Below, piece by piece: positions 18,398 through 32,873 of a DNA stretch of 64,000 nucleotides. A model generated the notes under the pieces. The model was not told the DNA's origin. It searched no databases and was given only the letters and a program-made list of their open reading frames with translations. Location of the stretch: assembly GCA_017398485.1 (NCBI GenBank), contig JAFQFY010000075.1, forward strand, positions 8,768 through 72,767, given 5' to 3'. Made by a program: the position numbers and the translations under genes. Position 1 is the first letter of the stretch, and each line of letters starts with the position of its first letter. The DNA comes from Clostridia bacterium. GTDB lineage: Bacteria; Bacillota; Clostridia; Oscillospirales; Acutalibacteraceae.

Positions 18398-18436
18398 AAA
18401 AAAAGAAGCTCCCTACCGTGTAGGGAGCTTCTTTTT
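18398..18436. terminator. bidirectional rho-independent terminator between the BlaR1-like gene and the ABC exporter
   Basis: A7-GAAGCTCCCTA-ccgtg-TAGGGAGCTTC-T5. Confidence 0.85.
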
Positions 18437-20087
18437 ATTCACAAAAGCGTCCGTCCTCGATGCGGATCACACGGTCGCATACGCCGAGCGCCGCCGGGCG
18501 GTGAGAAATACAGATGCAGGTCTTGTCCGTCAGCGCGCGCAGGTTGCGCAGCACCGTTTCCTCGGTCGCCTCGTCGAGTGACGCGGTCACCTCGTCGAGC
18601 AGCAATATCGGTGCGTCACACAGCACCGCGCGCGCGATCGCGAGGCGTTGCAGTTGCCCCTCGGACAATCCCGAACCGCGCTCGCCGAGCGGCGTGTCAA
18701 GCCCATTCGGCAGGCTCGCGATGACATCGTCGATCGCCGCGACCTTGGCCGCGGCCATGATCTGCTCATCGGTCACGTCAGGGCAACAGAACGCGATGTT
18801 CTCGCGTATCGTACCCGATAGAAGAATGCTCTGTTGCGGCACGTAGGCGAACAGCCCACGCGTGTCGGCGCCGAGCGCATATCGGCCGTCGTCGGTGGCG
18901 ACCTCCAGCGTGCCGCTCTGCGGTGCATAAAACCCAAGCATAAGCTTAAACAGCGTCGTTTTGCCGATACCCGAAAAGCCGCTGAGCGCGACAAACTCGC
19001 CGCGACGAACGGTCAGCGACGCATCGGTGAGGATCGGGTGCTCCGGCTCATAGGCAAAGGTCACCCCGTTGATCGCCAGCGCCTGCGGCGTCACGCTCTT
19101 GCAATCAAGAGCCTGCTGTGCGCGCGGCTCGTCCGGCAGGTCCTCCAACTCAATGAGCCGCTCTGCCGACGCGATCATGTGATAGTATTGCGGCAACACA
19201 TGGGACATCTGCATAAACGGCATACGGATCTGGCTGACGATCTGCAAAAACGCGGTCAACGTGCCGTAAGAGATCGCACCGGCCGCCAGACGTAATGCAC
19301 CCCAAGCGAGCGCCGCGTAGTAACTGCCCGAAAACAGAATGTGGATCGAAGCGTTGGAAAAGCTGCTCCACCGATTGCGCGCGATCGAACGGTCAAAATG
19401 TACCTTCAAACGATCCCATAGCCGACCGCGCACGTGTTCACTGCCCTCGAACGACTGGATCATCATCCAGTTTTCCAGGCTCTCCTGCGTATACGAGCGC
19501 GCTTTTCCGTCGCTTTCCTGCGTCTGCTTATGTAAGACCTTCACCCGTTTACCGAACAGGCGGCTTACCGCCACGAGCACAACGCCGAGCGCGAGCATCA
19601 CCGCCGTGAAGCGTGCATCCAGCATCAACAGCACCGCAAGGCACGCGACAAGGCGCGTCGTGAGCGACACGATGCGTGGGATAAGCGACACCACTCCGTT
19701 GGCGACAAAGTGGCTATCAGAATTGAGACGGTTGAGCAGCTCGCCCGAATGGAAACGGCTGACGTCCTGCCACTTCTTTTTGAACAACGTAGCAAACACG
19801 GTGTCCTTGATGCGCATCTCCATGCGCCCGAGGATGCGCGCGGTGAACTGACTGTTGAACACATCCATCGCCACCTGAAACAACAGCACGATAAACAGCC
19901 CTGCAATATTCCACCAGAGGTTCCCCTGCTGGTCACCGAGGGCAATGTCGATCACGCGCTGGGTCAGCACCGCAAACACCACCGTCGTCAACGAGGTGAT
20001 GCCCGTCGTCACCGACAGCAGCACAATGCGCGCCATATCCGCACGCGAAACGCGCCATATCCAGTTTTTTGCCGAGGATTTTTTCAT
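18435..20087 (-). CDS. ABC exporter, fused permease/ATPase half-transporter (no C39 peptidase domain)
   Basis: Six-helix TMD followed by an NBD. Walker A 'GFSGIGKTT', signature 'LSEGQLQRLAIARA', Walker B 'ILLLDEVT'. Start is coupled to the upstream stop (TGATATG). Confidence 0.9.
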   Translation of the reverse strand: MKKSSAKNWIWRVSRADMARIVLLSVTTGITSLTTVVFAVLTQRVIDIALGDQQGNLWWNIAGLFIVLLFQVAMDVFNSQFTARILGRMEMRIKDTVFATLFKKKWQDVSRFHSGELLNRLNSDSHFVANGVVSLIPRIVSLTTRLVACLAVLLMLDARFTAVMLALGVVLVAVSRLFGKRVKVLHKQTQESDGKARSYTQESLENWMMIQSFEGSEHVRGRLWDRLKVHFDRSIARNRWSSFSNASIHILFSGSYYAALAWGALRLAAGAISYGTLTAFLQIVSQIRMPFMQMSHVLPQYYHMIASAERLIELEDLPDEPRAQQALDCKSVTPQALAINGVTFAYEPEHPILTDASLTVRRGEFVALSGFSGIGKTTLFKLMLGFYAPQSGTLEVATDDGRYALGADTRGLFAYVPQQSILLSGTIRENIAFCCPDVTDEQIMAAAKVAAIDDVIASLPNGLDTPLGERGSGLSEGQLQRLAIARAVLCDAPILLLDEVTASLDEATEETVLRNLRALTDKTCICISHRPAALGVCDRVIRIEDGRFCE

Positions 20088-20088
20088 A

Positions 20089-20658
20089 TCAGTTCCCCTT
20101 AAACAATCGGATACATTTATTTTTCACGCGGCGCGGCAGATGGTAAAACCAAACAAGCGGTGCACGAAGCGGCAACAGCCTGTGCCAACGCAGACAGCGG
20201 CGGCGATAGGCGGTGCTGTGACAATCAATGCATTTACCGTCGCGGATAAACGCCGCGGCAACCGCCAGAATCTGTTCGGGACGCACGTTCGGCTCGCGCT
20301 CGGTCTGCGCGTCACCGAGCATGGTGTAGGTCAGCCCACTGCTCGAATGCATCGACGGCAACGTTTGCTTTTCGCCGTAGAAACGGCGCTTTTTGCCGTC
20401 ATCGCGCTCGACGATGCGGTGCAGCACGATCTGTCCGTTGTCGCGGCGATACAGCGGCACGTCGCCCGTGCGCAACACCGTCGGATCCGACGGTTTGACC
20501 AACACCACCTGATCGCGCTCATGCCGCAAAAACGGGCTCATACTGTAACCGGTGACGGTCAGCCGAACCTCCTGCCCCATATCAAGGCATTCCAGCATCA
20601 GCGGTGTCAGCTGTGCCTGGGATACCCGGGTCATTTGCGAAGCGTTTTCGCTTTTCAT
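20089..20658 (-). CDS. S24/S26-family (Sec11/SipW-like) serine peptidase without a membrane anchor
   Basis: Boxes 'VTGYSMSPFL', 'GDVPLY' and 'IVLHRIVER'. No N-terminal hydrophobic helix. Cys/Arg-rich C-terminal tail. ATGA overlap with the upstream gene. Confidence 0.7.
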   Translation of the reverse strand: MKSENASQMTRVSQAQLTPLMLECLDMGQEVRLTVTGYSMSPFLRHERDQVVLVKPSDPTVLRTGDVPLYRRDNGQIVLHRIVERDDGKKRRFYGEKQTLPSMHSSSGLTYTMLGDAQTEREPNVRPEQILAVAAAFIRDGKCIDCHSTAYRRRCLRWHRLLPLRAPLVWFYHLPRRVKNKCIRLFKGN

Positions 20659-20918
20659 GCGAGCAAAGCCGCCTCGCGCAAGCTGTCAATAAAGCGAGCC
20701 ACGTCTGCACGCGCGGCGTCCTCGGTGACGTCGTATTCCTCCAACAGCGCCGCCGTCAACGCCTCCTCGGTGATCTCCTTCTGTAGCTTTTGCCACAAGA
20801 ATGCGCCGGTGTCGTTGAGCGTAAGCATGCAGTTAAAATCCACCGTCTGCGCGCCGATGGGTACGACGATGTGGTGACCGCCGATCCGGCGCAGAACAAA
20901 TCCGTCTTTGAGTTTCAT
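20655..20918 (-). CDS. PqqD-family peptide-binding protein (RiPP recognition element-like)
   Basis: 87 aa: 'MKLKDGFVLRRIGGHHIVVPIG...MLTLNDTGAFLWQKL...EEYDVTEDAARADVARFIDSLREAALL'. AGGAGGG RBS. Only the last 87 codons of ORF-track entry 20655-21455 are used. Confidence 0.8.
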   Translation of the reverse strand: MKLKDGFVLRRIGGHHIVVPIGAQTVDFNCMLTLNDTGAFLWQKLQKEITEEALTAALLEEYDVTEDAARADVARFIDSLREAALLA

Positions 20919-20919
20919 A

Positions 20920-21813
20920 TCAGTGTCCCTCCTGAGAGAATATCGCGTTATACGCGGTTTCCACCGCCTCACGGCTGATGTTGCAGGCAAGTCCGTAGAT
21001 CGGCACGCTCGCCAGCAGACGCTCGGTAAAATCCAACACCCGAACGCCGAGCGATTCGTCGTAATACGGTCGCGCAATCTGGGTGGTAAGGTTGAGCATG
21101 CTGTCCACCGTGTCCAAGCGGCGTACGGCGTTCTCGGTGCCGCGCTCGATGAACACGATCGCGCGCAACGGCACGGCAAGGTTGCGGTTGAGCGCGGTCT
21201 TTCCGCTCCACGGCGTGCCGCAGATCCTCGCCTGCTCGCCGTCAAAATAGATGGCAGGCTTATCGTCGTTGACGATCTCGACCGCATCACCGAAATATTC
21301 CTTCCACAAACCCGTGTGGGTGGATTTGCCCGTGCCGGAATGGGCGGAGAAGGCAACGCCTTTTCCTTTGTACGCCAGGCACGAGCTGTGCAACACGCCG
21401 CCGCCGAGATACGACAGGCGGTTCTGGAACGAGATGCCGGTGTACATATATTCAAAGTCAGTCAGCGTAAAGGTCGGATGATGCCGACCCGAGAACAATT
21501 CGATATCCACGCGCGCATAGTCGGGGGTGAAATAGATGGCAAACAGCACAGGGCCGTTCTCCCCCGACGGAGTGACGCCGTGCGCATAACGGCAGAAGCG
21601 ACCGTCCGCCAGACGCACCACAGTTATGTTCTTAATGCGCTCGACAAGCTCGCCCTCAGGCACGCGCACCTCACCGACGCGGCGGGTACGCATGACCATG
21701 ACCGGCTCACGCGCGTCATCGCGCACATAGTCGGCAAAGCGCTTGGCAAAAAACGCCTTATCCGCGCTCTCCACGCGAATCGGCAGACCGGCAACGCACA
21801 GATCCATTGACAT
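20920..21813 (-). CDS. HPr-kinase-like P-loop protein (HprK C-terminal-domain family)
   Basis: 'HSSCLAYKGKGVAFSAHSGTGKSTH' parallels the HprK block 'HGVLVDVYGVGVLITGxSGVGKSE'. GGGAGGG RBS. First gene behind the promoter at 21845-21873. Confidence 0.7.
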   Translation of the reverse strand: MSMDLCVAGLPIRVESADKAFFAKRFADYVRDDAREPVMVMRTRRVGEVRVPEGELVERIKNITVVRLADGRFCRYAHGVTPSGENGPVLFAIYFTPDYARVDIELFSGRHHPTFTLTDFEYMYTGISFQNRLSYLGGGVLHSSCLAYKGKGVAFSAHSGTGKSTHTGLWKEYFGDAVEIVNDDKPAIYFDGEQARICGTPWSGKTALNRNLAVPLRAIVFIERGTENAVRRLDTVDSMLNLTTQIARPYYDESLGVRVLDFTERLLASVPIYGLACNISREAVETAYNAIFSQEGH

Positions 21814-21844
21814 ACCCTCCCATCATAAAAGTACATATATATTA

Positions 21845-21873
21845 ATTCTATCAAGATTCTTTAAACAAGTCAA
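21845..21873 (-). promoter_or_regulatory. sigma-A-type promoter TTGACT-17-TAGAAT for the HprK-like/PqqD/peptidase/ABC operon
   Basis: -35 is complementary to 21868-21873 and -10 to 21845-21850, with an exact 17-nt spacer, about 30 nt upstream of the first start codon. Confidence 0.6.
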
Positions 21874-21875
21874 CT

Positions 21876-21914
21876 AAAAATAAACGGGCGACCGACAAAA
21901 GTCGGTCGCCCGTT
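21876..21914 (-). terminator. rho-independent terminator ending the phage-like head/holin operon
   Basis: Hairpin AACGGGCGACCGAC-tttt-GTCGGTCGCCCGTT followed on the minus strand by TATTTTT. Confidence 0.8.
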
Positions 21915-21922
21915 CAATCCGA

Positions 21923-22219
21923 TCAGCTCTTCTTTGCCGTCGTTATGCGGCTGACGAAATCCGCCAGATAGTTGGAGCCTCTGGCAATCAGGACACCGGT
22001 CAGCACGCGACCGCCGATGTCCCCCAGCTCAATGCCCAGCACGCCGAACAGGTCCGCGCCCGACATTAAGCACAGCAGCACCGACACCACTGCCGCGAGC
22101 AGCTGTACGATCAGTGTCTTCCAACCGCCCTGCGTCAGCGCGCCGAGCAGAGACTTGGCGTATTCCACCAACGCTTCCACTGTCACCGCCAGCATGGCGG
22201 TCAATGCGATTTGTGTCAT
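21923..22219 (-). CDS. putative phage holin
   Basis: 98 aa with 2-3 hydrophobic helices and a charged C-terminus ('RITTAKKS'). An 'RGSNYLADF' box resembles phi-LC3-type holins (from memory). AGGAGA RBS lies 5 nt before ATG 22219. Last gene of the operon. Confidence 0.6.
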   Translation of the reverse strand: MTQIALTAMLAVTVEALVEYAKSLLGALTQGGWKTLIVQLLAAVVSVLLCLMSGADLFGVLGIELGDIGGRVLTGVLIARGSNYLADFVSRITTAKKS

Positions 22220-22233
22220 TGCGTTCTCCTTTC

Positions 22234-22524
22234 TCACTCCGTATGTTCCAATGCGTTGAGTCGATGGTGCGCGTTCTTCACCGACTCCTCCAGCCGTGTG
22301 ACACGATCCTTCACGTCTCCGAGCTGTACGCGGATATCCGCCATGAGCACGTCGCTTTTATCCACCTGTCCTCGAATGTGCTTAATGTCCGAGCGCATCT
22401 CGGTCAGTTCCCCTGCTTTTCGCTCGTTTTTGTCACGCAACGAACGCAGATTGACGATCAACGCGACGATCACGCCCAACGCCGACACAATCGACAGCCA
22501 ATCGGTCAGGCTCGGCGCCGTCAT
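22234..22524 (-). CDS. phage-cassette membrane-anchored coiled-coil protein, unknown function
   Basis: N-terminal TM helix 'LSIVSALGVIVALIVNL' followed by a heptad-rich helix. ATGA overlap with the upstream small ORF. Confidence 0.6.
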   Translation of the reverse strand: MTAPSLTDWLSIVSALGVIVALIVNLRSLRDKNERKAGELTEMRSDIKHIRGQVDKSDVLMADIRVQLGDVKDRVTRLEESVKNAHHRLNALEHTE

Positions 22525-22667
22525 TCACTCTCTCCGTCGGATTTTTGTCCGTCGGCCTCCGTGGTCTTTGCGCGGCGTTGCCGCATATACGCGGCAAGGT
22601 CGCGTTGCAACACCAAACGGTCGAGTGCTTCACGATCGTAAGCCTTTACACCTCTCGGTTTTTCCAT
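22521..22667 (-). CDS. 48-aa phage-cassette ORF (not in ORF track)
   Basis: My translation is MEKPRGVKAYDREALDRLVLQRDLAAYMRQRRAKTTEADGQKSDGESE. GGGAGGA RBS. Stop overlaps the next ATG. Overlaps the 3' end of the upstream gene by 22 nt. Confidence 0.4.
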   Translation of the reverse strand: MEKPRGVKAYDREALDRLVLQRDLAAYMRQRRAKTTEADGQKSDGESE

Positions 22668-23029
22668 AGCACGTCCTCCCGTTTCGCAAAACTGCCGCCT
22701 GCGTGGGATGCCGCGCGATGATACAGCGACAAAAAGCGATCATGCAACGCCTGCGCTTCGCCGTCAGCACACAGCAGCATTGCCGTGCCGTAGGCCAACG
22801 CCGGCATAAAGCGGCAGGGCAACAACAGCGGCTGCTGCAACGCGTCGAGCGGCGTGAACGCCGTACGATGCTCCCTGCTCCACAATTCGCCGTATATCTG
22901 GTTGACCATCGCCAGACCAGCATCATCCGCGTCTGCGGTGGCGGCACGCTTCTCATCCCCAAGCAAGCCGCACGCTTGTTTGAGTATCATGACTCCGGTC
23001 AAGGGTATCCCTCCTTGCGCGAAAATCAA
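22646..23029 (-). CDS. phage-cassette protein following the capsid gene (possible head-completion/connector protein)
   Basis: Function suggested by position only. The listed start is TTG overlapping the capsid stop. An AAGGAGGG RBS favours TTG at 23002 or ATG at 22990. Confidence 0.5.
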   Translation of the reverse strand: MIFAQGGIPLTGVMILKQACGLLGDEKRAATADADDAGLAMVNQIYGELWSREHRTAFTPLDALQQPLLLPCRFMPALAYGTAMLLCADGEAQALHDRFLSLYHRAASHAGGSFAKREDVLWKNREV

Positions 23030-23937
23030 TAGACGTAGGTGTACACACCGCCGGAGAGGCTGTTTTTGAGCACCACGTCATAGTACAGACGGTAGTCCAT
23101 CTTCCATGCGTCTGCCTGCAGGTTGTGCGCCGGGTCAAAGCAACGCACCTGCTCGGTCTTCTTGATGAGCGACGCGGCACGGCGCGGCATGACCAGCAGA
23201 CCGATGCTCTTGGCGCCCTCGGCGGGAACGAAGCCGCCCTCCTGCTGACCGTCGGTGACACCGTCGTTAAAGGTGTAGGCAGTCTTCATGCGGCTGTCCG
23301 GCACGGGCAGGATCGACACACCGTTGAAGGAGGTCACGTCGGTGTGCATCTCGCCGCGCTTGAAGCTGCCGACAACCAGCATGCGAGAGATCTCCGGGCT
23401 GTTCTGCAACGCCGACCACATAGCGCTGTCGACGAACGCAATGAGTTCTTCGTCGTAGCCGACCTCGTTCTGCACGTTGGCGATGGCGGTGGTGAGCATG
23501 GTCAGCGCCTCGGTGGTGGGATTGCCGCTGACCGTCTGAGAGACGCCGGCGGCATAGCCGGCGATCTTGGACAACACGTAAGCGTCCACCTCGGGCACGA
23601 CCTGCGTGCGCACAAACTCGCCCATGATCTGACCGGCGAGATCCGCCACGCCGGACTCGTCGTGGTCCTCACGGTCGAGCTGGAAGGAGCGGCCGCGGTC
23701 CATGGTCAGCGTAAAGGGCGTTGCAGATACCGATACCGTGCCGTTGACAAAGCCGGTGTCGCGGTTATAGTCGCCGAGACCCGATACGTTCATCTCGGGG
23801 ATCATGACCGTCTTGGCACCGACGAACTTGCCGCGCAGGTTGTTATCCGCAAGAAAGCCGGTAACCGGCTTTTCGGCAACCGCCTTGTCCAACTCGTCGG
23901 TCATCTTTTTGGAGATCATTTCTAAATTCAGGCTCAT
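23026..23937 (-). CDS. putative phage major capsid protein
   Basis: 303 aa, placed directly after the acidic scaffold-like gene in the terS-terL-portal-scaffold order. General resemblance to small HK97-fold capsid proteins (from memory, no motif claim). Confidence 0.65.
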   Translation of the reverse strand: MSLNLEMISKKMTDELDKAVAEKPVTGFLADNNLRGKFVGAKTVMIPEMNVSGLGDYNRDTGFVNGTVSVSATPFTLTMDRGRSFQLDREDHDESGVADLAGQIMGEFVRTQVVPEVDAYVLSKIAGYAAGVSQTVSGNPTTEALTMLTTAIANVQNEVGYDEELIAFVDSAMWSALQNSPEISRMLVVGSFKRGEMHTDVTSFNGVSILPVPDSRMKTAYTFNDGVTDGQQEGGFVPAEGAKSIGLLVMPRRAASLIKKTEQVRCFDPAHNLQADAWKMDYRLYYDVVLKNSLSGGVYTYVY

Positions 23938-23961
23938 ACTACATTTTCCTTTCTGTTACTG

Positions 23962-24417
23962 TTATTTTAACGCCGTACGAAATGCCCGAAGAAAAGCGTC
24001 CTGCTCAGGATGTGTGTCCACCGTCCCCTGCTGCAAGGAGCCGGCGGAACTGGCCGCCGCCTGCTGACGACGCTGCTGTTCGCGCTCGACGCGCTTTCGC
24101 TCCTCGTGGCAAAAACGCAAATACGCGTCAAACAGCGATATAGACTTCTCCGCCGCCATATCCAGCACCGCATCGGGCAACTGGTCCGGACGCTCAATAG
24201 ACGGGAATTCTTCGCGCAGAAGAATAAACTCCTCGGCAAGTCGGTGGGTGATGTCCGACTCATCCGCCGTCTCCTCCTCTGCAGCGTCCTCACACGGCGC
24301 AATTTCTGCTTGCGGCGGCAGTACCGTTTGTTCGTCCTGCGTCGGCAAGGGTGCCTCCTCGATCGGCATGCTCTCTTCGGGCGCGACCTCTACGGGTCGC
24401 CGTTCTTCCATTTCCAT
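23962..24417 (-). CDS. putative phage scaffolding protein
   Basis: 151 aa with a very acidic N-terminal half and a helical, Gln/Arg-rich C-terminal half. Lies between portal and capsid. Confidence 0.55.
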   Translation of the reverse strand: MEMEERRPVEVAPEESMPIEEAPLPTQDEQTVLPPQAEIAPCEDAAEEETADESDITHRLAEEFILLREEFPSIERPDQLPDAVLDMAAEKSISLFDAYLRFCHEERKRVEREQQRRQQAAASSAGSLQQGTVDTHPEQDAFLRAFRTALK

Positions 24418-24472
24418 GCTATACCTCCTAAATCATGAATTCCCCCTCCTTTCCTGTCGGATCGGTGAGAGT

Positions 24473-26104
24473 TTATTTCAGCTCCTGCAACAAGGCGTCC
24501 AGCTCGGGAACATAGCCCTGCGGCAGACGGCTGAGATACTGTTTTGCGGTGAGTACGCCGTTTTTGTAGAGATTATCCAGCGTCTCCACCGTACGCAATT
24601 CGCTGTACGGGTTGCCGGTGCCGACATCCACGCGAATATCCAGCAACAGATCACGGTATTTCTCCGCCTCAAAAGGCATATACCAAACGCCGCCGTCCCG
24701 ACGGATCTTCAAAGCGCGGTTGCCGTACATCGCCATCCAGAACTCACACCAGATGCGCGCCACATTCTCAATGAAGTGATAATAGCGGTTTTGCACCATC
24801 TGCAACGGCATCAGCGACGCCTCGCGAACCGCCAGGATCGCCGAAGCGTTATCCGGTTTGATATCGCCGAGCAGGGCACTGCTGATACCCGACTGCGAGA
24901 GAGTGTCGTTGATAAGGTTGTGCACGTTGGCATCCAACTGAGCGGTGAACGCCGGCGGATCGACATACCGTATCGCGTTCTGCACCTCTTCGCCTGCTCC
25001 GTATACCGGAATGACCTGCCCCGGATCGTTGGTGATGGGCTGCTGCACCACGTCGCCGTTGACCAGCATGATGGGCATGCCCATCATCATCACCGCCCAC
25101 ACACCTGCCGACACCGTGCGGTTGATGGCGATCTGATTTGGGATTAGATTGGGGATTTCACTCTCGCCGTAGGCGCGACAGCGCTTTTCTTCCCAACGAA
25201 ACAACGACAAGGGGTATAACTTTACACCGAGATCCCATTCGGGACGCACTACGGCGCCGCGACAAACCTGTACGGCTTTGACGCGACAAGCACTGCCGTC
25301 CTCGTTCCACTCCTTCCAGAAGCGCGTGATGACCGTCGCGTGCGCACTCATATCATCGCCGCCCTCGTCGGGACGAACGGAACGCCAATCCGCACTGCCG
25401 TAATGCTTCGCCATACGTTGCAAGCGTTCCGCCGGCTTGCGCTGTTCAATGAGAATATACGGTTGCTGTTGCAGATCCTCCAGCAACGGATCACCGACGT
25501 ACACGTGGTCGATCTCCAACACCTCACACGAAATGTCGCCGCAGATCGGCGCGGTGCGCGACACGTCGGCGTACAGACCGGTGCGTATACTATCGTCCCA
25601 ATAGGTATACAGCACACCCGTGCCGGTGATATAGGCGTTGCGAAGTGCTTGGCGACCGAGGGTATCCAGACAAAGGCGGCGCGAAGTGGTGGCAAAATAA
25701 TCCGTCAGCGCGGCGGCAATCGTCTGCGCCTGTTCATCCGCCGAGATCGGTTCGTTCATCGACCCTCCCTGTTGCAGTTGGCCGCGGATCGCGCTGACGC
25801 GCTCCTTGACCGCCGGCGTGTCAGGCAGGCCCTCTGCCGAAAACTGCACCGACACCGGTGCCGCGGCGACCACCGCCATTTTATAATCTGCGATACGGCG
25901 AATAACGTTGTGTCGCACCAGAGGGCGATTGTCCCCACAGTTGACGCCGTACCACTGATCGCCGGAATAAAAGCGCTCGTTGATGCGGTTCTGCTCAAAC
26001 ATGCCGTGCTTGCCGAGCGATTCCTTGTAGGTCACGCAACGGTGGTATTCGGAAAACACCTGTTGCGGCGTGACGCGGTTTAATCGGATGACCTTTTCAC
26101 TCAT
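24473..26104 (-). CDS. phage portal protein
   Basis: 543 aa, positioned after terL. The N-terminal 'NERFYSGDQWYG' block resembles SPP1 gp6-type portals (from memory). Confidence 0.7.
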   Translation of the reverse strand: MSEKVIRLNRVTPQQVFSEYHRCVTYKESLGKHGMFEQNRINERFYSGDQWYGVNCGDNRPLVRHNVIRRIADYKMAVVAAAPVSVQFSAEGLPDTPAVKERVSAIRGQLQQGGSMNEPISADEQAQTIAAALTDYFATTSRRLCLDTLGRQALRNAYITGTGVLYTYWDDSIRTGLYADVSRTAPICGDISCEVLEIDHVYVGDPLLEDLQQQPYILIEQRKPAERLQRMAKHYGSADWRSVRPDEGGDDMSAHATVITRFWKEWNEDGSACRVKAVQVCRGAVVRPEWDLGVKLYPLSLFRWEEKRCRAYGESEIPNLIPNQIAINRTVSAGVWAVMMMGMPIMLVNGDVVQQPITNDPGQVIPVYGAGEEVQNAIRYVDPPAFTAQLDANVHNLINDTLSQSGISSALLGDIKPDNASAILAVREASLMPLQMVQNRYYHFIENVARIWCEFWMAMYGNRALKIRRDGGVWYMPFEAEKYRDLLLDIRVDVGTGNPYSELRTVETLDNLYKNGVLTAKQYLSRLPQGYVPELDALLQELK

Positions 26105-26300
26105 ACTGTTCCTCCTTGTTTATCGGCATTTCGGTTCCGTCATAGTACAGAAAATTACGCGTGTTCTCCCAATGTTTTTCATCCTGCCGCACGGGCAGTC
26201 TGCGTCTTGGCGGTTTCGGCGGCATGCGGGTCTGCCGCCGATGCACGAACAGAAACGGCAGCATCACCGCGATGCCGCATATAAACCCAACCAATACCAT
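26097..26300 (-). CDS. small phage-cassette membrane protein
   Basis: 67 aa with N-terminal TM 'VLVGFICGIAVMLPFLFV' and a basic Pro-rich tail. GGGGGAGAG RBS before ATG 26300. Overlaps the portal start by 8 nt. Confidence 0.5.
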   Translation of the reverse strand: MVLVGFICGIAVMLPFLFVHRRQTRMPPKPPRRRLPVRQDEKHWENTRNFLYYDGTEMPINKEEQYE

Positions 26301-26314
26301 ACTCTCTCCCCCTT

Positions 26315-27607
26315 TCACTGCGTCCAGCCGCCGCGAAACCCGTAGCGGCGCGGCGTTTCCCTTTTAGTACTCGTGCGCGGCGCGTCCTCCATTGCGTAGC
26401 GCAGGGCATCCATCAGGTGATTGTCCCGATCGGTCGGGCGGTTAATGAACGTCCCGTCGCGCACGCCCTGCTGCCAGCAATACGCCGCCAGCTCGGCGGC
26501 GGTGTGCACGCATCGCTCGTGCACGAGCAGGCGGTATTCCTGCAACCGTGCGATGCCTGCGTTGACCGAGTCAGGACCCTTGCACGCCGCCTGGATTCGC
26601 CCGATCCCCAGCCGCCGCAGATCGTCGTTGGATTTCGGCTCGGCACTGTCGGCGCGGATGCGTTCTTTTTGATAGCCTTTTTCCTTGATCATCGCCGCGA
26701 TGTCCTCATTGAGCATACGCGTCTTATAATACTCGTCGTAAATATAGATGACCTTGTGCGTTTCATCCACCGCCGCGGCGATAAAGGCGGTGGGATCGTT
26801 GGTGTAGCCGTAGTCGAGGCCGAACACGTGACGCAGGCCCTCGCGCCGCAGCTCTTGCAGTGAGAACGCCTCCACCTGCCAGTTCTCGAACACCAAACCC
26901 TCGCTGTGTCCCCACTGACCGAGTCCGGCGACCGCGTATTGCCGCGGATTATTCAGCCGCATCTGCTCGTACAGCGCACGGTCGGTGTCGTCGAGGAACT
27001 CGTTACAGCGATAGTCGGTGGTGATAGCCAGCACCTGTTCGTCGGCGCGGTCAAAGAATCGCCCTTTAAGCCAATGGTTTTCGTTCCACGGATTGAACGT
27101 CAGCGTCGTCTGCTTAAACAGCGGCGGCGATACCTGCCCGCGCGGCGCCGAGAGATCGAGCTTGTCAAAATCCGCCTCCCGTGCGATCTCGAACGCCTCC
27201 TCCACCCACACCCAGCACAGCACGCCTTTGGTAACGGTGGTGGAAGCAAGCTTCTCGACATTATCGAGTCCTCGGAACAGAATGCGCTGACCCGTCGGGC
27301 GATAGCGCAATTCCAGCGGCTCGCGGCTTGCCTGCCACAGATGCTCAACCTTTAACCGACGGATCGCCCAGTTGAGCTGTGCAAAGGTGCTGTCGACATG
27401 GGTGCGATGCACCTGCCGCACGACCAGAAGATTTGCCTGCGGATATTTCATCATGTGCAGGATATACCACAGCGCCGTGGTGGAGGATTTTTTGGAAGCC
27501 TTACCGCCCTTGACGACGCGATACCGCCGCCGACAGCGCCAAAACTCGCCGTAACCGCCGCCGACGATCTCCGGCAACGACACCACCGTGCCGATGCCCT
27601 CGATCAT
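26315..27607 (-). CDS. phage terminase large subunit (PBSX-like)
   Basis: N-terminal ATPase with P-loop-like 'VVKGGKASKKSS' and Walker-B-like 'LCWVWVEEAFE'. C-terminal nuclease-like 'VFGLDYGYTNDPTAF'. ATG 27607 overlaps the upstream stop (ATGA). Confidence 0.8.
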   Translation of the reverse strand: MIEGIGTVVSLPEIVGGGYGEFWRCRRRYRVVKGGKASKKSSTTALWYILHMMKYPQANLLVVRQVHRTHVDSTFAQLNWAIRRLKVEHLWQASREPLELRYRPTGQRILFRGLDNVEKLASTTVTKGVLCWVWVEEAFEIAREADFDKLDLSAPRGQVSPPLFKQTTLTFNPWNENHWLKGRFFDRADEQVLAITTDYRCNEFLDDTDRALYEQMRLNNPRQYAVAGLGQWGHSEGLVFENWQVEAFSLQELRREGLRHVFGLDYGYTNDPTAFIAAAVDETHKVIYIYDEYYKTRMLNEDIAAMIKEKGYQKERIRADSAEPKSNDDLRRLGIGRIQAACKGPDSVNAGIARLQEYRLLVHERCVHTAAELAAYCWQQGVRDGTFINRPTDRDNHLMDALRYAMEDAPRTSTKRETPRRYGFRGGWTQ

Positions 27608-27777
27608 TTTCCCGTCAAGTAGGGACGCAGCATACACATCACCTCCTGCAACTCGTCCATTTCCTCCTCGAGCAACGCTACGCGCTTATCGTAGACGATG
27701 CGCTCGCGCGTCAGCTCCTCGTGGCGTCGGCGCAGCTTTTCAAACGACTCTTTGTATACCTGCATCAATTCTTTCAT
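27604..27777 (-). CDS. 57-aa coiled-coil protein between terS and terL
   Basis: MKELMQVYKESFEKLRRRHEELTRERIVYDKRVALLEEEMDELQEVMCMLRPYLTGK. Start lies 1 nt after the terS stop and its stop overlaps the terL ATG. Confidence 0.5.
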   Translation of the reverse strand: MKELMQVYKESFEKLRRRHEELTRERIVYDKRVALLEEEMDELQEVMCMLRPYLTGK

Positions 27778-27778
27778 G

Positions 27779-28171
27779 TCAGTCACCGATATTCTCCTCT
27801 CCGATAAACACGACCGGCGGCGTATCGCCGCCTTGCTTTTCTTCCGCAGGCCTGTCATAGCCGGCGTTGTTTTTGAGATACAGCATGTGCATGTTGGCAC
27901 TCGAGCCGCGACGCATCGCGTGCTCCACCACGCTGGCAGTCGCCTCGCCGCAGGCGCGGCGGATCAACGCCACCTTCCGCCGCGCCGATGCGCTCGTGCA
28001 CGCCACCTCTTCGTGTGCCACGCGATGTAAATCTGCCAGATCCATGTCCAGCTCCGCCGCCAGCCGTTCCGCCGTGAGCGGCACATCCTGCGCTTGTGCA
28101 TATTCCTTGGCACGCTGTATCGCCGCCTCGATGTCCGATTGCCTGCGCTTAGCAAGCGATTTATACTGCAT
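27779..28171 (-). CDS. putative phage terminase small subunit
   Basis: 130 aa immediately upstream of terL, with an HTH-like N-terminal half. The 'MLYLKNNAGYDRP' tail is reminiscent of TerS 'WLKNR' tails. GGGAGGTG RBS before ATG 28171. Confidence 0.55.
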   Translation of the reverse strand: MQYKSLAKRRQSDIEAAIQRAKEYAQAQDVPLTAERLAAELDMDLADLHRVAHEEVACTSASARRKVALIRRACGEATASVVEHAMRRGSSANMHMLYLKNNAGYDRPAEEKQGGDTPPVVFIGEENIGD

Positions 28172-28214
28172 AAGCACCTCCCGATATTGCATTTTGCAAC
28201 TTTACGGATAAAAA

Positions 28215-28409
28215 TTAAAAGCCTTGTCCCAACTCCACCACCACACAGGGAACCCAGCCCTCTCGTCCGACCCACATCTGCGACGTCTTGATCGTCGCGC
28301 CGTCACAATAGGCATCGCTCGCCAGCGGCTCGGCGGTGGAATTATAAAAAATCACCGGTAAATCCGGTGATAATGTAGCCGTGATCTTTTGGATATCCCC
28401 TACTACCAT
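28215..28409 (-). CDS. first gene of the head operon, 64 aa, unknown function
   Basis: GAGGTGAG RBS before ATG 28409. The longer ORF-track start 28433 lies inside the LexA box. No HTH recognised. Confidence 0.5.
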   Translation of the reverse strand: MVVGDIQKITATLSPDLPVIFYNSTAEPLASDAYCDGATIKTSQMWVGREGWVPCVVVELGQGF

Positions 28410-28427
28410 GTTCTCACCTCGTAAACA

Positions 28428-28439
28428 GAACATTTGTTC
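28428..28439. promoter_or_regulatory. LexA (Cheo/SOS) box GAAC-N4-GTTC
   Basis: The sequence aGAACATTTGTTCg lies just downstream of the -10 of the head-operon promoter and about 12 nt upstream of its first RBS. Confidence 0.65.
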
Positions 28440-28450
28440 GTCTGTAAATA

Positions 28451-28479
28451 ATTGTAGACGGTATTTCAGCGTCTGTCAA
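28451..28479 (-). promoter_or_regulatory. consensus promoter TTGACA-17-TACAAT of the head operon
   Basis: -35 is complementary to 28474-28479 and -10 to 28451-28456, with an exact 17-nt spacer. Confidence 0.65.
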
Positions 28480-28481
28480 TA

Positions 28482-28520
28482 GCAAAATGCAACTTTTTTG
28501 AAAATATGGTTGCATTTTGC
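28482..28520. promoter_or_regulatory. perfect 12-bp inverted repeat in the divergent control region (candidate operator of the CI-like repressor)
   Basis: GCAAAATGCAAC (28482-28493), 15-nt spacer, GTTGCATTTTGC (28509-28520). Abuts the head-operon -35 and overlaps the repressor promoter -35 (TTGCAT 28511-28516; -10 TAAGAT 28533-28538). Confidence 0.6.
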
Positions 28521-28580
28521 GATTTTATGTGGTAAGATATTGTCGTAACCTGTCGAAATACTGAATAGGAGTTGAAAAAC

Positions 28581-29225
28581 ATGGATAACCTGACCGCTTT
28601 TCGCTTACGCCAATGCCGTGTCGAATCCCATGAAACACTCGAACAGATCGGCCGCGTCGCCGACGTCAACAAATCCACCGTCATGCGTTGGGAGAAGGGT
28701 GACACCTCCAAGATCAACCTTGCCACCATCCACCTGCTCGCGCACCACTTCCGCGTCAGCCCTCTGTGGTTGCAAGGGTTAACCGATGATCCCACCGTCA
28801 TCGAGACGCCGCGCGATCACCTTACCGCCGACGTCATTCCCCTGCCGATCATTGGCGCTGTGCGCGCCGGTTGCGGCGGATTGGTGTTCGAGGAACACAC
28901 CGATACCGAGCCGATCAACGCCGAGCTTCTGCGCGGCGGCGACGACTATTTCTGGTTGCGCGTGAGCGGCGACAGCATGACGCCCGTCATCAACGACCGC
29001 GATCTGGTGCTGGTGCGTCGGCAGGAAAGCGTCGACAGCGGCCGCTATGCAGTGGTACTCGTCGACGGCGAAGAAGGACTGGTCAAACGCGTGGTATACA
29101 GCGATAACTGGTTGGAGCTGCAAAGTGTCAACCCCTACTATCCCCCACGCCGCTTTGAAGGCGAGCAGATCTCCGAGGTCACCATTATCGGCTTGGTTGT
29201 CGAGAGTAAAAGAAAATATGTCTGA
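28581..29225 (+). CDS. CI/LexA-like repressor: XRE-type HTH fused to an S24 autopeptidase domain
   Basis: HTH 'ETLEQIGRVADVNKSTVMRWEKG'. Cleavage-site-like 'GAVRAGCGG'. S24 boxes 'GDSMTPVI' and 'GLVKRVV'. ATG 28581 lies 9 nt after TAGGAG; the ORF-track start 28572 is TTG. Confidence 0.85.
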   Translation: MDNLTAFRLRQCRVESHETLEQIGRVADVNKSTVMRWEKGDTSKINLATIHLLAHHFRVSPLWLQGLTDDPTVIETPRDHLTADVIPLPIIGAVRAGCGGLVFEEHTDTEPINAELLRGGDDYFWLRVSGDSMTPVINDRDLVLVRRQESVDSGRYAVVLVDGEEGLVKRVVYSDNWLELQSVNPYYPPRRFEGEQISEVTIIGLVVESKRKYV

Positions 29226-29226
29226 A

Positions 29227-29265
29227 CAAAAAAACTGCCGTGCAGATCTCTGCACGGCAGTTTTT
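29227..29265. terminator. bidirectional rho-independent terminator (repressor gene / GH3 gene)
   Basis: A8-CTGCCGTGCAGA-tc-TCTGCACGGCAG-T5. Confidence 0.85.
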
Positions 29266-29275
29266 ATTTATAATA

Positions 29276-30886
29276 TTACATATAATTCTCATCAACGTCC
29301 AACGCAAGCGGCAGAATACCCGTCGCCTTTTCGCGACCCATCAGCACGTCAATGAGTGCATCAATTGTATAAGGGTCTTCTTTCGGAATCGGGCGCATCG
29401 AATTGAGATACACCAACTCGTCCTGGAAATATACGTCGTACATATTGGCAAGACCAGAGGAGATGACGTAACGCTTGCGCGGATCGATACGCCGGATCGT
29501 CCACACGCACTTCATGGCGATATGACCGGGAATGGTGTACACGTTGGTGGCTCCCACCACGCAGAAGATAAAGAGATCATACTTTTCCTGAATCTCTTTG
29601 GCCTCCTTGCCGTCAAGACCAAGGTTCTCCACATAATCCACCTCAAAGCCCTCGGCCGTGAGCTTTTCGATCAGCGACTCCAGCGTCCACGGCACGGCAC
29701 CGCACTGGATACCGCACAGGCATATCTTCTTGACCTTGCTCCTGTCGATCGGGAATTCGGGGTTTTGACGCGTCATTGCCACGATACCTCGTTTGGCGAG
29801 CGCGCGCAGAGTTTCGTGCGCCTGCTTTTCGTCGAGCAGATGCTTGAGATCACGGCTGCCGTCGAGCAGACCGAGTTTATTCTTAAACTCATAGATGCGG
29901 CGCATCGCGTCGTCCAAACGGGACATCGGGATCTCACCGTTTTCCAGCATCTCAACGATCAAGTCCACGGCGTCAAGATTGGGGAACAGCAGAACGTCGT
30001 GACCGGCGGCGAACGCTTCTGCGGTGACGCGGCGCGTGTCACTGCAATCAATGCCGCCCATGACCAGTGCGTCGGTGATGACAACGCCGTCAAAGCCGAG
30101 CTCGTTTTTGAGCAGCTCGGTGGTCACCTCGTAGGAAGTCGTCGCCGGCGGATATTTACCCGTGCGCTCGTCCACTTTTGCATACGCAGGGAACGCAACG
30201 TGGCTGGTCATGACGGACATAACGCCTGCTTCGATAAGCTTACGATAGACATAACCGTGGGTCCTGTTCCACTCGTCCTTCGACATATAGTTACGCGCCA
30301 TCGCCATATGGAAATTACAGGGCGAGGTGCCGATACCGGGGAAATGTTTGGTGGTTGTCGCAACGCCCATCTCCTGACAGCCGCGAATAAACGCACCGAT
30401 CAGTCTTGCGCTCACATCGGGGTCATCGCTGACGAAGTCACCAAACGCGTGGGACATCTTATCCTTCGGCAGATCACAGGACGGCTCCAAACAGTAATCG
30501 ATACCCGTATAGATCTGCTGCATCGCATTGAGCTGACCGGCACGATACGCCAATTCTTCATCATTGGCGGCACCGTATTGCAGTTTACGCATCGGGCAAG
30601 TGATGCCGGCAAAGCCGGTCAAGCCGTCGTGCACAAAAGACATCGGCACGCGACCTTTGTAGTTCTCGACGATCGCCTCGTACGCGCTGACCGTCTCCCC
30701 TTTTTCGGTGTTCGGCTTACGATCCGCATTACCGGAAAAGAAATAAAAGCCGATCGGGTACTTTTCGGTGTCAAAGCCGTACTCGGCAAACTGCCGAGCG
30801 GTCGGTGCCATCATCTGACACACCTTTTCACGCAAGGTCAGGTTTTCAAAGTTGACACCAAAATCCATGTTGTTCGTAGTTTTCAC
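29276..30886 (-). CDS. glycoside hydrolase family 3 protein (NagZ/beta-hexosaminidase-like), copy 1
   Basis: GH3 box 'KHFPGIGTS' and 'VITDALVMGG'. No signal peptide. Start is uncertain: GTG 30886 after GGGGTGG, or ATG 30868. The ORF-track start is 30985. Confidence 0.8.
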   Translation of the reverse strand: MKTTNNMDFGVNFENLTLREKVCQMMAPTARQFAEYGFDTEKYPIGFYFFSGNADRKPNTEKGETVSAYEAIVENYKGRVPMSFVHDGLTGFAGITCPMRKLQYGAANDEELAYRAGQLNAMQQIYTGIDYCLEPSCDLPKDKMSHAFGDFVSDDPDVSARLIGAFIRGCQEMGVATTTKHFPGIGTSPCNFHMAMARNYMSKDEWNRTHGYVYRKLIEAGVMSVMTSHVAFPAYAKVDERTGKYPPATTSYEVTTELLKNELGFDGVVITDALVMGGIDCSDTRRVTAEAFAAGHDVLLFPNLDAVDLIVEMLENGEIPMSRLDDAMRRIYEFKNKLGLLDGSRDLKHLLDEKQAHETLRALAKRGIVAMTRQNPEFPIDRSKVKKICLCGIQCGAVPWTLESLIEKLTAEGFEVDYVENLGLDGKEAKEIQEKYDLFIFCVVGATNVYTIPGHIAMKCVWTIRRIDPRKRYVISSGLANMYDVYFQDELVYLNSMRPIPKEDPYTIDALIDVLMGREKATGILPLALDVDENYM

Positions 30887-30983
30887 AGTCGCCACCCCAC
30901 TTGTATGATCAAACACCGTTCCTATCGTAACCACAATATACCATTTCCTCTCCGTATTTACAACCCTTTTTACGAAAAAATAC

Positions 30984-31021
30984 AAAAAAAATTACCACGC
31001 CGCACAAGGCGGCGTGGTAAT
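30984..31021 (-). terminator. rho-independent terminator after GH3 copy 2
   Basis: Hairpin TTACCACGCCGCC-ttgt-GCGGCGTGGTAA followed on the minus strand by T8. Confidence 0.75.
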
Positions 31022-31058
31022 CGTTCTTTACAAGGTGACAAAATTTGTGTTTTCGCAA

Positions 31059-32666
31059 TCAGCGCTCAAAATACTCGTCGGTTTCCACCTTAAAGGGCAA
31101 CTTGCCGGTCGCCTTCTGGCGGCCTACAAGAACATCGACTACCGCCTGTACCATATCCTCTTCCGTCGCCATAGAATAATCCATAGCATTAACGTAGATC
31201 GGCTCATCCGCGAAATAGACATCATGCAGCTTCGGCGCGCCGAACTGCACGACGCAGCGTTTGCTGCGATCAATACGGCGCATACCCCAAATGGTGCGCA
31301 TCGCCACGTGACCGGGTATAACGTAGGTCGCTGTCAAGCCGGTCGGGCAGGAGATGATCATATCGTACTTCGCTTGGAACTCCTTAACCGTGATGTGGTC
31401 AAGACCAACGTTCTCTTGGAAATCCACCTCAAAGCCTTCCGCTTTGAGCTTGTTGAGGAACAGCGTGTAATCCATATGGTTGTCGCTGCAATGAATCGCG
31501 CACACACAAATCTTCTTGACCTTGTTCTTGTCAATCGGGAACATCGGCGCATTGTGCGTCAGGGCGACAATGCCGCGACGGATGCGCTCCTCGTGAGTAC
31601 GCTTAGCAAAATCCTCGTCGAGCAGATGTTTCAGATTACGGCTGCCGTCAAGCAGACCCATCTTTTCTTTATATTCGTAGATGCGGCGCATCGCGTCGTC
31701 CAGACGAGACATCGGGATCTCGCCCTTTTCCAAACGGTCGATGATGATATCCACCGCATCAAGGCTCGGGAAGAGTAGCACGTCACTGCCGGCGGCAAAC
31801 GAATCCGCCGTCACCTTGGCAGGATCGGTAATATCCAAGGCGCCCATCACCAATGCGTCGGTCACAACCAGACCGTTGAAACCGAGCTTGTTTTTGAGCA
31901 GCTCGGTGGTCAGCTCATACGACACGGTTGCAGGGGGATACTCGCCGTTTTCGTCTTTGGTCGAATACGCCGGCAGCGAATTGTGGCCGGTCATAATTGC
32001 CATGACGCCATCATCAATGAGCTTCTTGTATATTTCACCGAAGCTGCTGTCCCACTCCTCCTTAGACAGATAGGTGCGCTCACGCGCCATGTGAGGATTG
32101 GTGTACGACGAACCCATACCGGGGAAGTGCTTGATAGTTGCGGCAACACCCAGCTCCTGCATACCCTTAACGTAAGCACCGCAAAGCGACAGGCAATCCT
32201 CTTTGATGCCACTAAAGAAATCACCGAAAGCAACCGACATCGGATGAGACGGCAGATCGCAAGACGGCTCCAAGCAAAGATCGACGTCGTTATAAATCTG
32301 TTGCATAGCGGTAACCTTGCCGTAACGATACGCAAGATCGGGATCGTTGGAAGCGCCGATCGAAAGTTTGCGTAGCACAGAGTTGATACCGGCAAAGCCG
32401 GTCAGACCATCGTGCGTGATGGACAACGGCACACGACCTTTGTAATTGTCAACAATAGCCTCGTAAGCACTAATCGTCTCACCGGCTTTCTCATTCGGTC
32501 TTTTGTCGGCGGCACCGGCATACCAAAAGAAGCCGATTGGGTATTTCTCGGTGTCAAAACCATAATCAGAAAACTGTCTGGCGGTAGGTGCCATCAACTG
32601 GCACACCTTTTCTCTTAATGTCAGGTTTTCAAAATTGACGCCAAATTCGTAAGTTGTTTTGCTCAT
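31059..32666 (-). CDS. glycoside hydrolase family 3 protein (NagZ/beta-hexosaminidase-like), copy 2
   Basis: GH3 box 'KHFPGMGSS' and 'VVTDALVMGA'. N-terminus 'MSKTTYEFGVNFENLTLREKVCQLMAP' is colinear with copy 1. GGAGGG RBS before ATG 32666. Confidence 0.85.
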   Translation of the reverse strand: MSKTTYEFGVNFENLTLREKVCQLMAPTARQFSDYGFDTEKYPIGFFWYAGAADKRPNEKAGETISAYEAIVDNYKGRVPLSITHDGLTGFAGINSVLRKLSIGASNDPDLAYRYGKVTAMQQIYNDVDLCLEPSCDLPSHPMSVAFGDFFSGIKEDCLSLCGAYVKGMQELGVAATIKHFPGMGSSYTNPHMARERTYLSKEEWDSSFGEIYKKLIDDGVMAIMTGHNSLPAYSTKDENGEYPPATVSYELTTELLKNKLGFNGLVVTDALVMGALDITDPAKVTADSFAAGSDVLLFPSLDAVDIIIDRLEKGEIPMSRLDDAMRRIYEYKEKMGLLDGSRNLKHLLDEDFAKRTHEERIRRGIVALTHNAPMFPIDKNKVKKICVCAIHCSDNHMDYTLFLNKLKAEGFEVDFQENVGLDHITVKEFQAKYDMIISCPTGLTATYVIPGHVAMRTIWGMRRIDRSKRCVVQFGAPKLHDVYFADEPIYVNAMDYSMATEEDMVQAVVDVLVGRQKATGKLPFKVETDEYFER

Positions 32667-32873
32667 AACGTTACCCTCCGCGTCCGCCTTACGGCGTTTT
32701 GTTTGGTTTACATCACATGCAACTTGTGGTTGCGTTGGTATAATACCATACATTTATTGAAAAATCAACCTGTATTACGGTATTTTTTATTCGAAAAATG
32801 CTTTTCGCGCACATCATACACCATTAAAAAAACGGCTATCGCAATCACTCGCAATAGCCGTTTTTGGCGCATA

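Follow-up and report, generated by a model that had tools for sequence, protein, structure and literature searches.

A conserved P22-like head and tail-adaptor cassette without a nozzle gene, predicted to be under SOS control, in gut Acutalibacteraceae

The closest described system to the locus presented here is FpGTA, the gene transfer agent (GTA) of Faecalibacterium prausnitzii (Borodovich et al., Nat Commun 2026, PMC12946183), whose operon I codes for the small terminase (TerS), large terminase (TerL), portal, scaffold, major capsid protein (MCP), nozzle and others, with the fibre, receptor-binding protein, holin and endolysin encoded by operon II, 125 kb from operon I. Its particles are ~40-nm capsids carrying 8.4-8.9 kb of host DNA, with no tails visible by electron microscopy (EM); operon II was undetectable in 7 of 12 strains, and GTA TerS proteins were described as having no DNA-binding domain (PMC12946183). 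This first report of podovirus-like GTAs in gut Oscillospirales dates from 2026 and concerns Faecalibacterium only. Here we analysed the region 21876-29265 of a 64-kb stretch of Clostridia bacterium DNA (the window), where 12 intact minus-strand ORFs form one operon beside a single divergent repressor gene. Our preferred, still tentative, reading is that this cassette is a domesticated and vertically inherited P22-like podovirus module belonging to the host SOS regulon, in effect the GTA-like head locus of a clade of Acutalibacteraceae.

The resemblance between the cassette and FpGTA is architectural, not orthologous. Both are podovirus-type, host-embedded in gut Oscillospirales and free of replication and integration genes, with genes arranged as TerS-TerL-portal-scaffold-MCP; neither locus holds all of the tail and lysis functions, and many strains carry operon I alone. 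On the other hand, the FpGTA MCP is of the N4-gp56 type whereas that of the window is of the phrog_422 type, with no NCBIfam match at E<=0.01 and hence none to N4-gp56; the FpGTA TerL, compared by name, is a 'Terminase-like family protein' as against Terminase_3 here; a nozzle gene (RCH50846) lies inside operon I and none in the cassette; FpGTA was seen in stationary-phase lysis, whereas a CI-like repressor and a LexA box go with the cassette; and the TerS of the window keeps a helix-turn-helix (HTH)-like block. FpGTA also bears on two premises of the initial annotation of this DNA. That GTA-like elements keep their tails is contradicted by the split FpGTA loci, with many strains lacking a detectable tail locus (PMC12946183), and the claim that a 303-aa HK97-like coat implies a capsid far above 7.3 kb does not hold against ~40-nm FpGTA capsids with 8.4-8.9 kb inside (PMC12946183), the capacity argument failing since GTAs with small, T=3-like capsids are known.

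Two other kinds of system bear comparison. The alphaproteobacterial GTAs (RcGTA, CcGTA) resemble our reading of the cassette in being domesticated, vertical, host-regulated, multi-locus and under purifying selection, but they are siphovirus-like, keep tail genes in the main cluster, use CtrA/GafA-type circuits and are unrelated in sequence. Phage-inducible chromosomal islands that form capsids (cf-PICIs), defined by making their own capsids and stealing tails, share with the cassette their own TerS, TerL, portal, capsid and head-tail adaptor and the lack of tail genes (PMC10085698). Unlike them, the cassette has no integrase, att sites, primase-replicase or AlpA/MerR/Stl-type regulator (its only regulator is CI-like, HTH_3 plus S24), it is podovirus-type as against their HK97/siphovirus-type heads with protease, it is not mobile as judged by synteny, and it contains holin-like ORFs, counted among the 'forbidden' components by the cf-PICI model. 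Three traits by which GTAs are recognised were found in the cassette: chromosomal phage structural and packaging genes, vertical inheritance with purifying selection and, as predicted from its promoter, control by a host regulator.

The structural genes of the cassette, in operon order, are the following.
27779-28171 (-): g2, TerS, 130 aa, P22 gp3-like through hits of its family to Pfam GP3_package
26315-27637 (-): TerL, 440 aa; Pfam Terminase_3 (E=7e-45) and Terminase_3C (E=4e-27)
26097-26300 (-): g5, 67 aa, with one N-terminal transmembrane segment (TM, residues 1-19) and an NFLxYxG motif
24473-26104 (-): portal, 543 aa; phrog_156 (E=1e-27), weak matches to P22_portal and T7-type Head-tail_con
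23962-24417 (-): g7, putative scaffolding protein, 151 aa, acidic; by position and composition (net charge -20)
23026-23937 (-): HK97-type MCP, 303 aa; phrog_422 major head protein (E=7e-77)
22646-23002 (-): g9, head-to-tail adaptor like P22 gp4/Sf6 gp7, 118 aa; by structure model and Foldseek

Compared with the P22 late operon (3-2-1-8-5-4-10-26...), the cassette shows the same order from TerS to a gp4-like adaptor, namely that of P22 genes 3-2-1-8-5-4 (TerS, TerL, portal, scaffold, coat, adaptor), and ends where the nozzle would come. As in P22, no prohead protease gene is present, which points to a P22-like assembly pathway, and in relatives of the cassette a gp10-like nozzle comes next, together with an ejection-protein-like gene. 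The cassette differs from P22 in having no nozzle, plug, ejection proteins, tailspike, lysis cassette, immunity region, replication genes or integrase, and in lying in a Firmicutes host, where it appears chromosomally fixed and LexA-controlled.

Not all the labels given initially to these genes stand on equal ground. That of TerS is upheld indirectly, through its family of 15 members, 4 of which match GP3_package (best E=1.7e-5), the Pfam family of the P22 gp3 small terminase, although the window's own g2 gave no match in the profile search when used alone; in the family alignment an HTH-like block, PLTVERLAAELDM, is conserved, and the C-terminal tail reads GEExIPD. As for g7, profile searches returned no match, and the scaffold label agrees with its acidic composition and with its position between the portal and MCP genes in every relative. 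The MCP shares 30-40% identity with annotated capsid proteins of Firmicutes phages. Homologues of g5 (families F10 and F19) occupy the same slot, from TerL to the portal or scaffold gene, in nearly all cassette and phage subfamilies and keep the NFLxYxG motif, the N-terminal TM being seen in the window's copy.

The structure check that had been proposed for the ORF at 22646-23029 was run for g9, using an AF2 model built on a 35-sequence alignment (pLDDT 84.5). When compared with the PDB by Foldseek, all of the top 15 matches were podovirus tail adaptors, including Sf6 gp7 (5vgt/7sfs), P22 gp4 (9pgg), KHP30 and GP4, with probabilities of 0.96-0.99 and TM-scores of 0.5-0.68; E-values were only 0.2-1, and the matches were highly consistent. 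Judged by its predicted fold, g9 is thus a P22 gp4/Sf6 gp7-like tail adaptor, within the limits of these weak E-values, and the locus, first described as 'head-only', is better described as head plus adaptor, even if no tail genes follow. In the nozzle-bearing relatives the adaptor gene is followed by that of a ~700-aa protein (F6) with no sequence match in Pfam, PHROG or PDB, whose model (pLDDT 88.4) matched podovirus tail nozzles with probability 1.0, namely those of PhiM1 (8vbx, E=1.6e-18), HRP29 and T7 gp12 (6r21), and the P22 gp10 nozzle (8eap) with E=1.2e-11. Sequence-profile searches of the PDB with the g9, nozzle and TerS alignments gave nothing, g9 and F6 being identified by structure prediction and Foldseek alone.

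No nozzle, nor any remnant of one, was detected by tblastn with seven diverse nozzles (E<=1) in 409 kb of core-clade loci (stretches of +/-10 kb around 21 of them) plus the window, and tblastn of nozzle, F91, lysin, F24 and F31 queries against the 64-kb window was likewise negative. Two candidate sources of a tail in trans were discarded: an abundant 865-aa nozzle-like family belongs to a true phage (L065), and P0189 and P0185, considered as a tail-only locus of the window lineage, led instead to other compact cassettes. The phage element in question (L065:1-19952) also codes for a 3218-aa PBECR3/ART-PolyVal protein, XkdX and a reverse transcriptase, possibly part of a DGR, and its 865-aa distant nozzle homologue reaches very high abundance in gut metagenomes.

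When one genome per GTDB species was scanned, 60 related loci were retrieved, nearly all in gut metagenome-assembled genomes (MAGs) of Acutalibacteraceae or of unclassified Clostridia/Oscillospirales. The core clade comprises 21 loci (L001-L021, portal identity 64-79%) and the fragment L048, with the architecture of the window: [repressor] g1-TerS-g3-TerL-g5-portal-scaffold-MCP-adaptor, g10-g12 being present or not. The nozzle-less cassette is therefore found in no fewer than 21 species of Acutalibacteraceae. It is directly followed in at least 11 of them by the same ScmC-PqqD-SPase-ABC cluster as in the window, and in L002 the other, LeuRS side is syntenic too, this evidence being drawn from MAGs. 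The orthologous-locus comparison called for by the initial annotation thus found the same tail-less cassette in the syntenic relatives; a full prophage at this site, which would have spoken for a recent deletion, was carried by none.

The sister loci L023-L025 share the repressor with the core clade, and L023 and L025 also its promoter and LexA box, the box being missing from L024; in all three the adaptor is followed by the F6 nozzle and then by host genes (GlgA in L025, glycoside hydrolases in L024). Related IMG/VR viral contigs (20-39 kb) show the adaptor-nozzle succession whenever they are long enough, and the longer ones, including contigs of 37-39 kb, continue past the nozzle with an F534/F91 protein, F534 having a weak match to the 'pilot protein for DNA ejection' PHROG. 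For L046 and L057, two phage-like relatives, annotation with PHROG and Pfam yielded almost nothing. Judged by gene content, the window clade is a nozzle-less derivative of nozzle-bearing relatives.

Other compact arrangements were observed among the relatives. L050-L056, L058 and L068 are host-embedded cassettes of ~9 kb (e.g., L051:6316-15322; L068:4370-13235) with the order TerS-TerL-small protein-scaffold-MCP (395 aa)-portal-adaptor-nozzle, followed in the L050-L056/L058 type by a 100-aa protein, an NlpC/P60+SH3 lysin and a holin-like gene, and in L068 by a GHL10 protein in place of the lysin set. They have no LexA box, are flanked by host genes such as HtrA, DnaK/DnaJ and GlgC, and are candidate complete mini podovirus-type GTAs. 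L066:2073-14408 is a compact cluster lying between host genes, whose products are a portal homologue of 824 aa, a protein with a tail-collar domain, a collagen/Gp10_C fibre protein, a nozzle, a CBM96 protein and a lysin (NlpC/P60+PG_binding); this interval has no annotated terminase.

TerS, TerL, portal, MCP, adaptor and repressor are full length in every core locus covering them. The dN/dS ratios (Nei-Gojobori, pairs with unsaturated dS; unreliable for the small overlapping ORFs) were 0.04-0.13 for TerL, 0.05-0.15 for the portal, 0.04-0.15 for the MCP, 0.08-0.22 for the adaptor, 0.09-0.24 for TerS and 0.04-0.13 for the repressor, that is as low as, or below, those of the flanking host genes ScmC and ABC (0.09-0.26), with similar dS for cassette and flanks within each pair. 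Moreover, the mean identity of portal, TerL and MCP correlated with that of ScmC and ABC over 45 pairs (Mantel r=0.82, p=2e-4), which indicates co-divergence and hence mainly vertical descent. The core loci L006-L011 lie in other host contexts, e.g., next to MatE or GH95, and the cassette may have occasionally relocated. The idea of a mobile element was rejected, att-like repeats and an integrase being absent, and the recurring neighbour F13 is a host MatE transporter. Selection instead of decay, as initially argued, is supported by intactness in at least 21 species, dN/dS of 0.04-0.24 and dS equal to that of the host flanks. In the nozzle-bearing cassettes the adaptor dN/dS was 0.13-0.36, at higher dS, so that the adaptor of the nozzle-less clade is at least as constrained; such a constraint with no nozzle in cis suggests that the adaptor still has a partner.

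The intergenic region between the operon and the repressor gene is the most conserved non-coding feature of the locus, with, in operon-strand order, an inverted repeat, the promoter, the LexA box, a GAGGTGA ribosome-binding site (RBS) and the g1 start. The regulatory features of the cassette are the following.
28581-29225 (+): CI-like repressor, 214 aa, HTH_3 (E=5e-6) and Peptidase_S24 (E=5e-27); phrog_4 (E=4e-39)
28482-28520 (no strand assigned): putative repressor operator, 12-bp inverted repeat GCAAAATGCAAC-N15-GTTGCATTTTGC, arms at 28482-28493 and 28509-28520, abutting the -35; read from the sequence
28451-28479 (-): sigma-70-type promoter of the operon, TTGACA-17-TACAAT, 11/12 consensus match, kept in all core loci
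28428-28439 (no strand assigned): LexA (Cheo/SOS) box, reading CGAACAAATGTTC on the operon strand and lying 11 nt downstream of the -10

The GAAC-N4-GTTC pattern occurs only once in the 64-kb window, and the box holds the same promoter position in 22 loci. The combination of TTGACA-17-TACAAT and CGAACAAAYGTTC is kept in these 22 loci, including a sub-clade (L013 and L015-L021) where the CI-like repressor gene and the inverted repeat have been lost. The repeat is present wherever the repressor gene adjoins and missing where it does not, and this joint loss and retention designates it as the putative operator of the repressor. The palindrome TTGCATTTTGCAA at the g1/g2 junction (28187-28199) resembles the operator arms and may be a second operator inside the operon; in L024, GTTGCATAATGCAAC is found directly ahead of the TerS gene. 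When the promoter-plus-box pattern was scanned against the JGI metagenomes, 80 loci were returned, 7 of which are cassettes; in other loci the first gene downstream codes for a Y-family (dinB-type) polymerase (~15), UvrB (3), RecA (2), RadA (1) or LexA (1). The same motif ahead of SOS genes suggests that the box is a genuine LexA site and that, at the sequence level, the cassette is a member of the host SOS regulon, in line with the SOS control predicted initially. In six environmental metagenome contigs (L098, L099, L135, L144, L160 and L162) the same promoter and box precede the gene of a conserved ~150-aa GerE/LuxR-type regulator, which may be an SOS-regulon member not yet described.

Taken together, the relatives compose an evolutionary series going from a 37-39-kb phage to a LexA/CI-controlled cassette with nozzle, the same without nozzle and, finally, a LexA-only cassette. 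Since the 7.4-kb module is intact under a predicted DNA-damage switch in more than 20 species, it is to be regarded as a working domesticated module and not as a dead prophage. The earlier interpretation of the locus accordingly keeps its parts on selection, SOS control and site comparison, and loses those on capacity, on GTAs keeping tails and on a head-only content.

According to the preferred, GTA-like reading, in the undamaged cell host LexA would sit on the box past the -10 and, in the sub-clade of the window, the CI-like S24 repressor on the inverted repeat by the -35, the two together silencing the operon. Upon DNA damage, activated RecA would cause both repressors to cleave themselves, allowing a single transcript to be produced. 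Portal, scaffold and coat protein would then form procapsids, TerS and TerL would pump DNA through the portal, and the gp4-like adaptor would cap it. A gp10/gp26-type nozzle and plug, fibres and lysin, not being encoded at the cassette, would have to be supplied in trans, most likely by a chromosomal locus not linked to the cassette, after the pattern of FpGTA with its two operons; on this precedent we rank such a locus slightly above a helper phage. Several observations weigh against this GTA-like reading. Orthology with FpGTA is argued against by the MCP without N4-gp56 match and by the TerL family name, and, as FpGTA has its nozzle in operon I, the analogy leaves the missing gene uncovered. 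No unlinked nozzle, fibre or lysin locus was found in the window or by the promoter-plus-box scan of metagenomes, which returned only cassettes and ordinary SOS genes and no tail operon. Release is left unexplained by the patchy g11 and g12 and the lack of an endolysin, and the HTH-like block of TerS implies that packaging may be site-specific and not random.

This same block would fit the specific packaging expected if the cassette filled capsids of its own with DNA, using its own portal and adaptor, and left it to a related podophage, co-resident or superinfecting, to complete them with nozzle, ejection proteins, fibres and lysis functions, i.e., if it were a chromosomally fixed, podovirus-type analogue of cf-PICIs, at a cost to the helper or at none. 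Such helper-dependent tail-stealing has the cf-PICI precedent of own capsids and stolen tails (PMC10085698), and related phages in the same bacterial family carry adaptor homologues (27-42% identity) with a nozzle and F534/F91 directly behind. In one Acutalibacteraceae genome the nozzle-less core cassette L018 and the phage-like element L046 (TerL, MCP, portal, adaptor, nozzle and ejection-protein-like gene) lie ~40 kb apart on a single contig (JAZNJO010000063.1), SOS induction would coincide with that of a temperate helper, and the adaptor is strongly constrained despite the missing nozzle. Nevertheless, the cassette lacks integrase, replication module and att repeats and co-diverges with its host flanks instead of moving, a second related portal locus was present in only 1 of 21 core genomes of the scan, and co-expression in the same cell would be required because podovirus tails assemble stepwise on the head, so that we consider tail-stealing a serious but rather unlikely explanation. 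A bolder variant, to which we give a similarly low credence, is that the nozzle was lost after domestication in the ancestor of the at least 21 species, leaving an SOS-triggered, non-mobile capsid factory, kept under strong selection, whose particles are finished by nozzles and fibres of resident or infecting P22-like podophages; given the HTH-like block of TerS, packaging may run from a specific start into the neighbouring chromosome. If true, this would be a chromosomally anchored, podovirus-type 'tail thief' with lateral-transduction-like export, and no such system has been described.

Tail-less capsids, either DNA-filled or empty, might also be the end product, acting for instance as protected extracellular DNA or decoys. 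Strong selection in 21 species with no nozzle at the locus would agree with this, as would the FpGTA particles without tails identifiable by EM (PMC12946183). A study of Lactococcus starter cultures reportedly deals with tail-less prophage particles. However, it is not obvious what the conserved adaptor would do if there were no tail, a means of delivery is not apparent, and P22 heads lacking gp10 or gp26 lose their DNA; the adaptor and this DNA loss in particular make a tail-less end product improbable. Still less credible is a role in anti-phage defence, with capsid, portal and terminase competing with or hijacking the assembly of incoming podophages, similarly to PICI interference: portal, adaptor and coat protein are indeed homologous to those of phages of the same hosts, and induction would be host-controlled, but PADLOC gave no match for any cassette protein except coiled-coil and HTH noise, a full packaging machinery under strong selection exceeds what interference needs, and LexA control would answer DNA damage and not infection specifically. 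Finally, the missing tail, lysin, integrase and replication genes could be taken as the mark of a functionless remnant of a recently deleted prophage. This the comparative data exclude for practical purposes, the cassette being intact in 21 or more species whose portal identity falls as low as 64%, with dN/dS of 0.04-0.2 and a conserved regulatory region, and no relative having a full prophage at the site.

Under the GTA-like reading, the cassette would show that a P22-like head module was domesticated a second time, independently, in a further abundant gut family, and its regulatory logic is directly testable because of the canonical SOS box on its promoter. It poses the question of why a packaging machine and its tail adaptor have been conserved for so long with no nozzle in cis. 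The answer bears on the share of bacterial DNA in gut virus-like particles (VLPs) that comes from such elements, Acutalibacteraceae DNA being reported from mouse-gut VLP fractions (bioRxiv 10.64898/2026.07.08.737213), and on how antibiotics or other SOS inducers might raise such DNA traffic.

The remaining features of the cassette are the following.
28215-28409 (-): g1, 64 aa, first ORF of the operon, RBS GAGGTGA; kept in all core loci
27604-27786 (-): g3, 60-aa coiled-coil ORF from the gene caller, overlapping TerS and TerL; F18 in relatives
22521-22667 (-): g10, 48-aa ORF from the gene caller; kept only in L002 and L004
22234-22524 (-): g11, 96 aa, N-terminal TM (residues 6-24) and coiled coil, lysis-associated or holin-like; phrog_1863 (E=1e-10)
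21923-22219 (-): g12, 98-aa membrane protein, putative holin, TM 36-54; phrog_20258, of unknown function (E=6e-14)
21881-21916 (-): intrinsic terminator at the operon end, 16-bp stem with 10 G-C pairs and a T run after
29230-29265 (+): repressor-gene terminator, a 16-bp stem and then a T run

All 12 minus-strand ORFs of the initial annotation were found intact and where it had placed them, as was the single operon running from promoter to terminator with the CI-like repressor diverging at its right end. It had also described almost every junction as an overlap, which is the case for only 5 of 11, the other six being gaps of 14-55 nt. Its description of a phage-like gene block devoid of tail, endolysin, integrase and replication genes proved correct, none of these genes occurring in the rest of the 64-kb window either, and so did the absence of att-like direct repeats at the cassette flanks. 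Both g11 and g12 are patchy among relatives and missing from the closest ones (g12 is not present in L002 and L004); the PHROG family of g11 (F31) directly follows the NlpC/P60+SH3 lysin in the L051-type cassettes. The holin label of g12 is plausible in view of one strong TM, its sole PHROG match having unknown function.

The rest of the window is host core, with LeuRS, S21, EF-P, two GH3, SpoIVA, IF3, L35/L20, DprA, TopA, SMC and FtsY on one side, and a ScmC-like/PqqD/signal-peptidase-like/ABC cluster and BlaR1/BlaI on the other. The four genes of this cluster (18435-21873) code for a ScmC-like protein (297 aa), PqqD, a signal-peptidase-I-like protein (189 aa) and an ABC exporter, with a promoter at 21845-21873 (-), and resemble a RiPP maturation/export set, in which neither a radical-SAM enzyme nor a precursor peptide was recognised. 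The cluster was considered as a part of the element and rejected as a host neighbour, having its own promoter past the cassette terminator and being missing beside some cassettes. At 29276-32753, two tandem GH3 glycoside hydrolase genes separate the repressor gene from the Zn-ribbon/EF-P genes, a local insertion by the cassette that is not present in L002, although the LeuRS-side synteny is kept there. At 15593-18394, a 933-aa BlaR1-type M56 peptidase gene adjoins that of a BlaI-type repressor, its product having an unusually long C-terminal extension of ~600 aa that ends in a DUF3221-like piece.

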